A stretch of DNA of 64,000 nt from Octopus vulgaris. Its lineage: Eukaryota. Under the pieces are notes generated by a model. That model was not told the DNA's origin. It did not search any database and was given only the letters and a program-made list of their open reading frames with translations. The position numbers and the translations under genes are program-made. The DNA lies in the NCBI GenBank assembly GCA_951406725.2, contig OX597820.1, forward strand, positions 62,000,001 to 62,064,000. The letters are read 5' to 3'. Position 1 is the stretch's first letter, and the number at the start of each line of letters is the position of its first letter. Shown piece after piece: positions 990 to 57,978 of this stretch.

Positions 990-1340
990 TTAATTAATAA
1001 GGGTGAGAGAATTAGATACTAATTTAATAGTATATTTATTCCACACCAAGTGGCCTAGTTATGGTAAAATCTGGCGTGTGATTGAGTGGATTTCATCCAG
1101 ATAGTCTTGGCTGACGAGCTACAAATGGATTTTTGTAAGTAATATTACATTTAATTCATTAATAGCGAAACAATTGTCCCAAAATAATCTGTATTTTTGT
1201 TATTTTTTATTTGCCCTGTCCGTGTGAGCTAACAGTCGTACTGGCTTTCATGGGAAACATGTATTTTCGTGGTTGAAACCTTTTGGATTAACTGGTGCTA
1301 GAGTGAGCAATATAGTGACCACTCTCTTATATTTATTTTA
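990..1340. mobile_element. Small (TA)n-flanked hammerhead-bearing element (Penelope-like repeat or retrozyme-like)
   Basis: About 350 bp between TA tracts. Starts AGGGTGAGAGAATT...CACCAAGT, like the elements at 16.66 kb and 24.70 kb, and contains a hammerhead. Confidence 0.55.
1107..1182 (+). ncRNA. Type I hammerhead ribozyme with an intact core
   Basis: TTGG-CTGACGA(1111-1117)-GCTA...TAGC-GAAA(1167-1170)-CAATTG-TC^CCAA. Stem I TTGG/CCAA, stem II GCTA/TAGC with a long loop, palindromic stem III, GUC cleavage triplet. Confidence 0.8.
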
Positions 1341-3692
1341 TATATTATATATATATATATATATATATATATATATATATATATATATATATTTGTAGAT
1401 ATGTGTGCGTATGTGTGAGTGTATGTATGTGTGTGAATGCGTATGTTGCTGTGTATGCATTATAGTTATCATGCATAAATGTAGGGGTAATTTAGCACCA
1501 GGAAAAGAAGAATTAGGAAAAGGAAAAGGAACTGCCAGTAGAAAGAGGAACAAAAAGGAGAATTAGAAAATAGTAATAATAATAATAATAATAATAATGA
1601 TAATAATAATAATAATAATAATAACAACAGCAACAATAATGATGATGATGGCTATGGGGAAGAGGATGATGATGATGACGACGGTTGATGTGGATGATAA
1701 TGATGATGTTGATGATGGTGGTGATGATAAAGATGGTGATGATGCTGATGACGACGACGATGATTACGAGAGAATGAAGAGAAATTACAAATGACTAAAA
1801 AAGAATAGAAAATATTCAATATTGAAGAAAACTCTAGAAGTACGATAATGATAAGTAGAAAGAAAAATGAAAATACCGAAAAGAAGTTATACTCGAACAA
1901 GAAGATGGAGAAGGGCAACGATAAGGAGACGTTGGTGGAGGAGTAGGAAGAGAAGAAGAAAGAGAAAAAGAAGTGGAAGAAAAGAGAAACAAAGATGGAA
2001 ACTAAAAAGCGACCCCTATTTCTACCGATCTAAACCAACATACAAACACACACCGTAGAAATAAATAAATATGGAGAAACTTAGTAGGTGTGTCTGGAGG
2101 AGGAAGAATATGAAGAATGAAAACTAATGAGAAAGAATAACAATGGGAAGAAAAAGAAGAGGAGAATAATAACGGATGATGATAAAAAAAAGAAAGCTGG
2201 AAGTTGATAAAGAAGTAGAGAAAAGGAAGAAAATAAAGAAGAGGGGAAAAGACGAAGAATATTTTTTTTTAAATAGAGCAAAAGAAAGTACGGGAGAATT
2301 AAGAGAAGCTGAATGAAAGAAATTGAGAAATTATGGGAGCAAGAACGAGTGGAACGTCATGAAGAGAGGAGGTGAAGGAGAAATGAAAAATAAATAAATA
2401 AATTAAAGAAAAAAAGCAAGTTAAACAAAAGAAAACATGGTTGTTATGAGACAATGGCAGTTGGTCATTTTGTCTGGAATTTCGCATGTGGAATGCACAT
2501 AAGAATAGTAGAATTTGTCGTTAATAATCACGAACGAATAACGCCATCAACTTCTCTTCACACCCCTAAATTAAAATGGTGTATGAGGGGGTATATTGTC
2601 GACACTAAAAATTCATCTATCATTGAATAATATAAAATGCGGTTTTGTTCAATTTTTCTGATTATTTCTGCGGTTTTTCTCTTTTGTATTTGTGTTGTTT
2701 GTGCTTGAAGCTAGCTTGTGGCTGTTCGTTTGATAGTGTGCATGAATTTATCTTTACGGGTTTGTGCGTATGGGTATATAATTATATTTGTGTGAATATA
2801 ATTGTGTGCGTGTGTGTGAGTATAGATGCTTCTATATCGTTCTCGTCTGTAGAGACGCCTAAGTAATACAATATGTTGAAACCTCGCCTAAATTAAATTG
2901 CGGAATTGGAAATAAAGTAAATTGGTGTTTGTAACGAACACACAGAATGAGCGCATGCATATATATATCGTGGACGTATGCAAATCCATATATTTGCATT
3001 CTTATGTATATATGCATACACGTACAGAGTTGCATACTAACATATATGCAAGTATATATATGTATATATGTATATATATATATATATATATATATATATA
3101 TATATATATATATATATATATATGGATATGTGTATACACATGTGTATGTGTATATATGTGCATATATATATGTATATATGTGTGTATTTATATATGTATA
3201 TACATATGTAGATATATTTGCGTATGCATATGTGTATATGTTATATATATTTATATATATATATATGTATATATATATATATATATATATGTAGATATAT
3301 TTGCGTATGCATATGTATATATGTTTTATATATATATATATATATATATATATATATATATACATATATATACGGACTTATATATTCATATATATATACA
3401 TACTCGTATACAAACATTCATACAGGAATACGGATACATATGTATGTATACGTATAAACAGCACGCAAACACGCACACAAACAAACAAGCGTTACATACG
3501 AAACACACCAGCAGATAAGACACATGTACAGATATATACACGTATCTACGAATATATAAGTGCCTCTGTGTATGTGTGTTTGTATATACACACACACACA
3601 CACACACACACACAATATATATATATATATATATATATATATATATATATATATATATATATATATATATATATATACATATATATATATAT

Positions 3693-4074
3693 ATTCTTTT
3701 ATTCATGTTCTTACTTTTCCCAGTCATTTGACTGCGGCCATGCTGGAACACCGCCTTTAGTCGAAAAAATCATCTCTAGGACTTATTTCTTTTAGCCTAG
3801 TACTTATTCTATCGATCTCTTGTGTCAAACTGCTAACGTACGGCGACATAAACACACCAGCATCGGTTTCAATCGATGGTCAGGGGGTCAAACACACAGA
3901 CACAAACATATACATACACACACACACACATACACACACACACTCACACATATACAACGGTTCCCCTCTACCAAATCCACTCACAAAGCTTTGGTCGGCC
4001 CGAGTCTATAATAGAAAACACCTGCCCAAAGTGCCACGCAGTGTGACTGAACCCAGAACCATGTGGTTGGAAAG
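3693..4074 (-). mobile_element. SINE family A (tRNA-derived, CORE-like segment, internal microsatellite)
   Basis: Matches the other copies: GGTTCAGTC..ACTGCGTGGCAC.TTGGGCA.GTG...CCAGCATGGCCGCAGTCAAATGACTG. Confidence 0.8.
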
Positions 4075-4307
4075 TGCGTATATATTCGCGTCCATGTGTG
4101 TATGTGTGTGTATGTGTGTGTGTGTGTGTGTGTGTGCGCTTGTGTGTTATGTGAAAGGGAGAGGGAAAGAAAGAGCGGGAGACTGACTGAGTACATTTGG
4201 TTGACAAAAATCACTTCAAATAATCACTATATTCAAGAACACACACACACACACACACACACACACACACACACACACACACACACACACACACACACAC
4301 ACACAGA

Positions 4308-55922: not shown

Positions 55923-57229
55923 TCTAGTGGGGCTAAATCAGAAACCATGTGGTTGGGAAGCAAACTTCTTGCCGCACAGACACACCATGTAATACATACA
56001 TACATCCATACATACATACATACATACATACATACATACATACATACATACACACATACACACATACATACATATGGATATATATACATATATAAATTTA
56101 TATATATATGTACATATATATACTATATATACATATATGCATTTGTTATCATAAACATACATACACACACATATTTATGCATATATATATATATATATAT
56201 ACTTATTTCTATATAGGTATGTATATATATATTTCTAAACATGTCTGTATATATATTTCTATATATATATATGTGTGTGTATATATATGTGTGTGCGTTT
56301 GTATATATATATATATATATATATATATATATATATATATATATGTATATATATATATATATATATATATATATATATTTCTATATATGTATGTATGCAT
56401 ACGCACACACATACACATATATATATGTGTGTATATACCATGTACAATTAGCAATCATGCATTGTTTTATTGGTAATTCTTCGCAATGTTACAAAGGGGT
56501 GCGTTATATGTGAGCACGGAATTTGAAAGTAGAATGTGCTTTGCGACCCCTTGAAAGGAATGTGGCACCAGTATCTGAATAAATAAGCAACTGCAATATT
56601 TATTATGCCTTTATTTTAATGGAGTGTATCAGCCTGTCTGTCTCACTCTGTACACACACATACGCAGACACATAGACGCACACATAAACACAGAGACACT
56701 CACTCTCTCACGTCTATATATATATGTATTATAACATTCATACATACATACATACATGCATACATACATACATACATACATACATACTTACATACATACA
56801 ATATGTTCGTTCATTGACTACACATGGCGTTAAAGTCTCCTAGCATTCTTATATTTCTAGTTTTGTACTGACACTGAAAGGATTCAAGAAAATGCTTCAT
56901 CACTTACTAAATGATTCCTAAATCTATTTCATGCTAGGTCCCCAATCACATGTTATTCTGCAGAAACAGACGTCGGATTTTGAACTCAGAACGCAAAGAG
57001 ATCGGCGAGACGGAACAAGTGCCGCATGGCATTGTATCCAACTCGGCCAGTTCAGTCATGTGTGTATATCTTTATGTATGTATGTATGTATGTATGTATG
57101 TATGTATGTATGTATGTATGTATGTATGTATTTATGTATGTATGTATGTATGTATGTATGTATGTATGTATGTATGTATGTATGTATGTATATATATATG
57201 TATGTATGTATACACACATATATATATGG

Positions 57230-57462
57230 AAGGCGGCGAGCTGGCAGTAACGTTTGCATTCCGGGCGAAATGCTTCGCTGTATTTCGTCTGCCGTTACGT
57301 TCTGAGTTCAAATTCTGCCGAGGTCGACTTTGCCTTTCATCCTTTCGGGGTCGATAAATTAAGTACCAGTTATGCACTGGGATCGATGTAATCGACTTAA
57401 TCCGTTTGTCTGTCCTTGTTTGTTCCCTCTATGTTTAGCCCCTTGTGGGCAATAAAGAAATA
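57230..57462 (+). mobile_element. SINE family B (Tx1-like tail), full length
   Basis: AAGGCGGCGAGCTGGCAG...TAGCCCCTTGTGGGCAATAAAGAAATA, within TA-rich repeats. Confidence 0.88.
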
Positions 57463-57589
57463 AATACATATATATATATTCACATATATATATATATATA
57501 TATATATATATATATATATATATATATATATATCTCTCTATATATATAATACATATAATCTATCTCTCTATATCTATATATATATATAT

Positions 57590-57978
57590 ATTTGTAAAAA
57601 AGAAGTTTGAAAATGCCACTATATTAGATAAATTTTAATTTTTACATGTTTCGGTTCTTGAAGTAACGAACCTTATCAAAAAGAATTTTTTCATAATAAA
57701 GAGTATAATGGAATAGTTCATAATTGTTTCATACATTCAATAGAGTCCATGCTATATACATAGAAAGTATAATGGAACAGTTCATAATTGTTACATACAT
57801 TCAATAGAGTCCATGCTATATACATTCAATAGAATCCATGTTCTTGAAATATATTATAAGGTGTAAGTCGTTCTTTACTGTTTTGTCAAGTGTAGTGCAG
57901 GAGTTCATTATAGATTTTACCTTGTGTTCCGATGGGAGCAACAGTTGTGATTCTTGGTTGTCGTAATTTTGGTCAACT
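57590..57978. mobile_element. (TA)n-flanked small repeat element, U3-A8 hammerhead family
   Basis: Starts TTTGTAAAAAAGAAGTTTGAAAATGC and has an internal tandem duplication of about 62 bp at 57700-57840. Confidence 0.55.
57637..57687 (-). ncRNA. Hammerhead-like motif with a U3-A8 core
   Basis: Reverse complement reads TTT-TTGATAA-GGTTC-GTTACTTCAA-GAACC-GAAA-CATG-TA^AAA. Perfect 5-bp stem II, palindromic CATG, GUA triplet, weak A-U stem I. Confidence 0.55.

Follow-up and report, generated by a model that had tools for sequence, protein, structure and literature searches.

A probable footprint of paired Penelope-type priming in hammerhead-bearing repeats of Octopus vulgaris

Retrozymes without a long terminal repeat (non-LTR retrozymes) code for no protein and consist of low-GC units in tandem, each unit carrying one type I hammerhead ribozyme; they have a palindromic helix III and thousands of dispersed copies, and co-occurring Penelope-like elements (PLEs) have been proposed as their mobilisers (Cervera and de la Pena 2020, PMC7229834; Li, Clavereau and Pollet 2026, bioRxiv 10.64898/2026.07.22.740005). 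Their RNA circles, which form in coral, mussel and axolotl, have been shown by northern blot (same sources), and in the papers cited the link to PLEs rests on co-occurrence and on similarity to the PLE pseudo-long terminal repeat (pLTR). Endonuclease-containing (EN+) PLEs of the Neptune/Nematis type combine a reverse transcriptase (RT) with a GIY-YIG endonuclease at the C terminus, a cysteine linker and a pLTR hammerhead (Craig et al. 2021, PMC8557442; PMC4209133), and insert into (TA)n targets as partial tandems with an inverted 5'-truncated copy and a 30-40 nucleotide (nt) tail at one end (PMC8557442). At AT-rich DNA, the protein of the Poseidon element PAc cut the two strands in vitro and extended each of them; two internal RT start sites on the RNA, which bound the tail, explain the PLE tail (Frangieh et al. 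2024, PMC11167929). Chlamys MRC1 represents non-coding PLE parasites with head-to-tail multicopy insertions (PMC8557442).

Here we describe a stretch of 64,000 nt from Octopus vulgaris (assembly GCA_951406725.2, contig OX597820.1, positions 62,000,001 to 62,064,000; hereafter the window) in which six hammerhead motifs (H1 to H6) lie in six hosts (F1 to F6). The element classes are already published, as far as the cited sources describe them (PMC4209133, PMC7229834, bioRxiv 10.64898/2026.07.22.740005), and the window is therefore an instance of them, not a new system. The footprint left by insertion (A and B as two fixed 3' ends, arms that are clonal and do not overlap, copying that does not halt at the ribozyme cut site) appears to tie non-coding hammerhead repeats to PLE chemistry. 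The hosts are as follows.

985..1057, minus strand: F1 retrozyme, short inverted arm (unit 217-291), ending at site B in (TA)n.
1058..1339, plus strand: F1 retrozyme arm (unit 413-533 plus 1-161), ending at site A, then (TA)n; 100% identical to young array units.
15229..15643, minus strand: F5, 5'-truncated 3' end (pLTR) of an autonomous PLE of the Neptune/Nematis type; it terminates at site A and shares 99.8% identity with a full-length copy.
16656..17141, minus strand: F2 retrozyme arm with a 565-nt tandem unit, ending at site B.
17141..17272, plus strand: F2 inverted arm (unit 69-201), ending at site A.
25003..25352, minus strand: F3, non-coding hammerhead element of an older family, ending at site A in a short TA run of the 3' untranslated region (UTR) of an R4/Dong-like long interspersed nuclear element (LINE).
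26672..27061, minus strand: F4 retrozyme with a 477-nt tandem unit, here one partial unit ending at site A.
57591..57978, minus strand: F6, from an older, second subfamily of the F5 PLE: a 5'-truncated 3' end that terminates at site A.

Every family was found to possess two discrete 3' ends, A and B, before (TA)n. These lie 161/291 nt after the cut site in F1, about 200/292 in F2, about 155/246 in F3 and about 148/235 in F4, spacings of about 88-130 nt; in F5/F6 they lie 18/56 nt after an anchor, 38 nt apart. To survey their use we searched the genome (2.8 Gb in 227 contigs; L-numbers denote loci taken from genome-wide matches), and for F1 we tallied 36 loci in positional order along one contig (C1). 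All 17 two-armed loci combined one A with one B end, and the single-arm loci (11 A, 8 B) put the chance expectation at ~0.5 for each, giving p about 1e-5 for 17/17. L187, scored as single in this tally, is A+B on another analysis and would make an eighteenth. The combination recurred in 13/13 loci of an F1 top-hit set, four of which were picked for their likeness to the window inversion, and in 14/14 resolved head-to-head loci of other families (F2, F4, F5/F6 and one family from a random sample), a count that omits L096 and L132, whose 3' ends face each other tail to tail. A tail at one of two inverted ends has been reported qualitatively (PMC8557442, PMC3846280); the rule of one A plus one B is strict here, whereas the tail is optional in the EN+ PLEs described (PMC8557442). 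For PAc in vitro, start-site use showed no difference between strands (PMC11167929), whereas the genomic two-armed insertions use one of each, and unlike those of PAc the start sites here carry a short TA-like sequence resembling the target.

The arms themselves proved nearly clonal. F1 divergence is 0.25% within an arm, 0.31% between the arms of a locus and 2.6% between loci, and 9 of 26 multi-unit F1 loci carry array-wide variants absent from all other sampled loci. Arm length reaches 6810 nt, with 30/53 F1 arms longer than one unit; arm 5' ends are scattered, and the centre is joined with a 0-7 nt overlap or a short insert at non-palindromic junctions. Exact F1 20-mers 3' of the cut site (2235) and 23-mers across it (2130; control 0) are similarly numerous, with no drop, and the three extra loci listed show no stop at the site, which argues that a cut linear monomer was not the main template. 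In L227, L035 and the window copy, each arm includes sequence that the other lacks, which excludes fold-back in both directions, and since the window arms (unit 217-291 versus 413-161) do not overlap, both were, we conclude, primed on RNA.

Two further observations concern the arm ends. Several arm 5' ends fall near site B (unit 266-297; F1 loci L187, L199, L219, L222, L229, L231, L233 and the window F4 copy at 27061), where copying may halt or the arms may be joined. Most A and B ends are preceded, at 8-18 nt, by a CCT/CTT box spotted post hoc, which is no more than a hint, against a background of 4-9% of positions.

Genome-wide matching (1027-3112 first-look candidates per host family, 40 scored) revealed that all six hosts are multi-copy. 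F1, the H1 host, forms tandem and head-to-head arrays of a 533-nt unit, many of them 100% identical on different contigs, and arrays of at least 13 units, which could serve as sources, occur at L220 and L234. F1 to F4 are non-coding (longest ATG open reading frames (ORFs) 43-81 amino acids (aa)), and GC content is 0.30-0.34 in F1, F2 and F4. By the features that can be tested in sequence, F1, F2 and F4 are non-LTR retrozymes, and F3 appears to behave in a retrozyme-like manner. The tandem units (533, 565 and 477 nt) exceed one published range, 170-400 nt (PMC7229834), and fall inside another, 51-972 nt (bioRxiv 10.64898/2026.07.22.740005). Unlike the published retrozymes, F1 to F4 yielded no pLTR homology, and the accessible text of the retrozyme papers makes no mention of inverted arms, two fixed ends or TA targeting (PMC7229834; bioRxiv 10.64898/2026.07.22.740005). 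No sequence was common among the four families, and a partner search gave no meaningful match to 31 PLE 3' regions, those of 30 GIY-YIG loci (of 6136 candidates) and of one full element. Chlamys MRC1-type elements, in the available description, resemble the 3' end of their autonomous partner and mostly have no canonical hammerheads (PMC8557442), unlike F1 to F4.

These results reshape a first-pass annotation of the window, made from its letters alone. Its retrozyme-like, tandemly repeated, multi-copy hosts inserted into TA microsatellites are borne out: F1, F2 and F4 are low-GC tandem hammerhead units, partial tandems also occur in the autonomous PLE, and every family ends in (TA)n. The hosts had been said to start at (TA)n, where instead they end with their 3' side, and the single non-autonomous family proposed there resolves into four unrelated non-coding families and two subfamilies of an autonomous PLE. 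The description as short non-coding units suits the H1 to H4 families and fails for H5/H6, which are truncated ends of a 4.8-kb coding element. Linkage to Penelope is direct for H5/H6, which sit in an RT and GIY-YIG element, and for F1 to F4 is indicated by the PLE-type footprint and not by 3' sequence.

A further retrozyme array (L253:2097-4768; 359-nt unit, 49% GC, five units one way and two the other) was met in a random stretch, with ends A and B 44 nt apart.

By sequence, the six motifs are type I hammerheads, for which self-cleavage is predicted:

1107-1182, plus strand: H1, canonical type I (CUGACGA, GAAA, palindromic helix III CAAUUG), with a GUC site whose cut is predicted to fall between 1178 and 1179.
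15294-15335, minus strand: H5, U3-A8 core, first helix II pair A-U, helix III CAUG, one stem I mismatch.
16944-17005, minus strand: H2, core CUGACGA, helix II opening on an A.A mismatch (20/20 copies), helix III CGUACG.
25151-25237, minus strand: H3, window copy damaged (GCAA), with GAAA in 24/25 family copies.
26814-26874, minus strand: H4, with U3 private to the window copy and C3 in 19/20 family copies.
57640-57682, minus strand: H6, U3-A8 core, first helix II pair G-C, stem I UUUU/AAAA.

The first-pass annotation had placed six motifs here, and both they and the stem I and stem III sequences it quoted are present in the window. A strict type I descriptor recovered H1, plus H4 once U3 was allowed, against 0-0.01 per shuffled window (100 shuffles), and a relaxed descriptor recovered H1, H2 and H4 against a mean of 0.08 in 25 shuffles; the excess over shuffled controls, up to three motifs against 0-0.08, answers the doubt raised at that stage. 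An Rfam scan of the window at gathering thresholds returned no matches, so long-loop variants such as these apparently escape its models. Among the window motifs, H1 alone is fully canonical. Alignment of the 20-25 best copies per host family nevertheless revealed that the core (CUGANGA / GAAA / NUH) is canonical in the majority of F1 to F4 copies. The first helix II position is paired in F1, F4, F5 and F6 and mismatched in F2 and F3, the C.A mismatch of H3 being a family-wide trait like the A.A of the H2 family. The U3-A8 core (UUGAUAA) occurs in 18/20 copies for H5 and 20/20 for H6, with the first helix II pair swapped in a compensatory manner (A-U versus G-C). Such U3-A8 covariation is known from PLE hammerheads, including those of Schistosoma Cercyon PLEs, as is a palindromic helix III, associated with dimer folding (PMC4209133).

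The loci of F5 and F6 form a staircase of common upstream sequence leading into one RT and GIY-YIG frame. This 781-aa frame matches PF00078 (E 8.7e-6, below the cut-off) and PF01541 (E 3.1e-6), bears a C-x4-C-x2-C linker directly upstream of GIY-YIG, of the CX2-5CxxC form, and has 720 relatives at E<=1e-30 with like domains; it is open in 16 of 150 scored GIY-YIG matches. The full anatomy is visible at L145, where an inverted pLTR that stops at A is followed by a pLTR in direct orientation, the 38-nt tail, ORF1, the RT-endonuclease frame and a pLTR that stops at B. The autonomous unit spans 4810 nt and displays partial tandems, the 38-nt tail, a pLTR hammerhead, an inverted copy and a (TA)n target; an exact H5 34-mer has 63 genome copies. 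Canonical EN+ PLEs are described with one ORF (PMC8557442), whereas this element has an upstream ORF1 of 466 aa that overlaps the RT frame (intact in 3/16 fetched loci), and the Fig. 1 legend of that source admits an ORF1 in some PLE type. Compared feature by feature with the published description (PMC8557442), the H5/H6 host thus appears to be a Neptune/Nematis-type EN+ PLE in all but ORF1.

The overlap between ORF1 (L240:1806-3203; four unnamed homologs) and the RT frame lies at a T TTT TTA heptamer (about 3135-3145), a sequence known as a -1 frameshift signal, and an in-frame ATG stands 30 nt further on. The heptamer is altered in one copy with an intact ORF1, and structure prediction downstream of it gave no frameshift structure. 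Further PLE families, Neptune-like and of a divergent type, occur in the genome (L144:2695-3420, minus strand; L146:5234-7400, plus strand; L157-L160, L172, L173, L177, L178 and L184), some with hammerhead-like 3' ends. L154:5844-7274, which lies upstream of a truncated PLE copy, packs at least four different hammerheads on both strands into 1.5 kb.

At the RNA level, the F1 unit folds far better than shuffled sequences (z -6.9), and as circles F1 and F2 reach z -7.6 and -7.0, such that both are predicted to fold like rod-shaped circles. In the sequencing run X2, an RNA library by guess, F1 is represented by one contig of 563 nt that returns to its start after 533; loose ends in this run are presumably a cDNA template-switch adaptor. 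Across four contig sets guessed to be RNA, F1 was covered in 30/30 bins and the autonomous PLE in 26-30/30. Contig depths summed in X3 to about 600-3500 for F1 against 0-65 for the PLE, and the two were similar in X1 and X9; contig depth is no expression measure, and contigs reveal neither strand nor ends. In a look for RNA-editing scars, A>G outnumbered T>C (63 vs 20) among 187 array-fixed changes, which are non-independent, but 25 rare changes showed 7 vs 7.

We regard twin-primed Penelope reverse transcription of a probably circular RNA, one DNA end priming at each site, with strand displacement and joining by microhomology, as the probable origin of these insertions. Read-through RNA of a tandem array would self-cleave via dimeric hammerheads with a palindromic helix III, and the monomers would then circularise. 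A Penelope RT-endonuclease, perhaps dimeric, would cut both strands in (TA)n, one DNA end priming at A and the other at B. Strand displacement would let each cDNA run for as many as about 13 laps, after which microhomology repair would join its end to that of the other cDNA; one failed priming would leave a single arm (A or B). The TA-targeting family of H5/H6, with its intact 781-aa frames, is the obvious candidate partner of F1 to F4.

Several observations weigh against this account. Hammerhead mutants had no effect on PLE insertion in vitro (PMC11167929), and 8/9 Xenopus dimers failed to cleave (bioRxiv 10.64898/2026.07.22.740005). An intact core may not be needed in each round, because a U4C change in the core is fixed in every unit of two F1 arrays (L228 and L230) and the helix II mismatch persists in F2 and F3. 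A and B ends could not be assigned in four two-armed loci of F2, F4 and F6, the arms of L236 are no closer to each other than to other loci, and clonality could also come from homogeneous source arrays or gene conversion. F1 to F4 share no sequence with the 31 PLE 3' regions compared, whereas many Xenopus retrozymes and Chlamys non-autonomous elements do resemble PLEs, and the tails of F1 to F4 are 2-3 times the length of the autonomous element's tail. Among 25 F3 loci no tandem was found, F4 (an old copy) folds no better than shuffles (z -1.5), and the closed X2 contig is equally expected from a tandem multimer or tandem DNA.

The most serious competitor would apply the same twin priming to linear, uncut multimeric read-through RNA, one or two molecules from a homogeneous source array, with the hammerheads as passengers at the insertion step. 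The in vitro insertion that proceeds without hammerhead cleavage (PMC11167929), the core variants fixed in arrays and the F1 source arrays at L220 and L234 all speak for it, and an uncut template would account just as well for copying that runs on past the cut site. We nonetheless judge it rather unlikely, as the locus-unique array-wide variants demand a single-unit bottleneck, without which arrays would shrink in each generation, and hammerhead cores are maintained in many unrelated families.

Much less probable is that monomers or short copies insert and that arrays and their homogeneity arise later in DNA, satellite-like, through unequal crossover and gene conversion. Such amplification has been suggested for retrozymes (bioRxiv 10.64898/2026.07.22.740005) and would homogenise units, but it leaves unexplained the fixed A and B ends on opposite arms, the scattered 5' ends and the identity of inverted arms only about 150-300 nt long, and young 100% identical arrays lie on many contigs.

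We hold it very improbable that the inverted arm derives from fold-back self-priming of the first cDNA, as in the palindrome model for rotifer Penelopes (PMC3846280). Short overlaps do occur at the junctions, and in 11 of the 17 two-armed F1 loci the length of the B arm would suffice for it to template the A arm; in the other 6 it is too short, the junctions are not palindromes, and the non-overlapping loci (L227, L035 and the window) already contradict the model. That F1 to F4 are short interspersed nuclear element (SINE)-like partners of the ordinary LINEs in the window (R4/Dong, RTE, L1, CR1) is hardly credible: F3 adjoins an R4-like ORF here, but that ORF lies upstream in 1/25 F3 loci and F3 downstream in 1/22 R4 loci (the window itself; one of the 22 is mis-oriented), which also led us to reject this LINE as the source of H3, and the pair of fixed 3' ends, the tail and the head-to-head arms belong to the features of PLEs, this genome's autonomous PLE included.

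To place the window in its genomic context, we scanned 20 fixed 10-kb stretches outside it (200 kb) with the strict and relaxed type I descriptors. The strict descriptor found 15 motifs there (0.08 in shuffled controls) and the relaxed one 17 (0.24), at 11 places, with seven motifs belonging to one array. The resulting ~one motif per 13 kb accords with the density of about one per 10 kb first estimated from the window, and since a random 200 kb held 15 motifs, such density appears to extend genome-wide. With helix III left unconstrained, it was palindromic in 17/21 distinct motif keys (several keys being variants of one family; shuffles gave 0 matches), in line with the palindromic stem III proposed at the outset. 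A rough extrapolation, to which the seven motifs of a single array contribute, gives 1-2 x 10^5 hammerheads per genome; other descriptors underlie the 126,247 hammerheads counted in axolotl and the about 5000 in a mussel (PMC7229834).

Combining density with mechanism, we advance a broader claim, which we hold as possible rather than probable. A dimeric Penelope enzyme acting on one hammerhead-made RNA circle would write each insertion in a single event, priming at A and B and rolling by strand displacement. Many unrelated retrozyme families (44-130 nt tails) would parasitise it, yielding on the order of 100,000-200,000 hammerheads in 2.8 Gb, roughly tenfold denser than the axolotl count.

These data touch on the route of PLE tandem and inverted insertion, the role of the hammerhead and the enzyme that moves animal retrozymes. 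We found no literature on the strict A+B rule, clonal arms or fold-back exclusion for retrozymes, although subscription papers or preprint supplements may cover the A+B rule, and no paper on hammerheads in octopus-like animals, which such papers and supplements may likewise cover. As matched reagents the genome offers a family whose RT-endonuclease frames are intact and a template of 533 nt whose hammerhead has over 2000 exact copies. If the reading of twin priming on a circle is true, an intact enzyme, a young template and fixed starts make it possible to test directly the model, long proposed, in which Penelopes and retrozymes transpose from a circular template.

The remainder of the window holds 159 tandem-repeat rows, with many microsatellites, and retrotransposon remnants. 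A head-to-head inverted structure at 11170-11842 has 206-nt arms, 89% complementary, around a palindromic centre, and matches only itself in the genome. Each arm terminates in what resembles the 3' half of a hammerhead (a stem-loop, GAAAC and a short palindrome), with no clear CUGANGA and no TA flanks, and it is possibly an old PLE remnant. An R4/Dong-like LINE remnant lies at 25360-26300 on the minus strand; in the 3' UTRs of related loci (L279-L298) a hammerhead-like layout with a degenerate core, a 5-bp stem, GAAA and palindromic CCGG is found, which is absent from the window copy. Other mobile-element remnants occupy 50500-52079, 29650-30314, 54384-55910 and 24209-24609 on the plus strand and 58120-58602 and 42522-42863 on the minus strand. 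The remnant types comprise RT plus zf-RVT frames, presumably L1/Tx1-like, a 508-aa RT (RTE-like), a mariner-like piece and another RT piece, and a CR1/L2-like C terminus is followed at its 3' end by a small hairpin before (TA)n. Copies of SINE-like repeats of an abundant kind also occur, some as inverted pairs (12692-12924, 19969-20202, 57230-57463 and 59634-60131).

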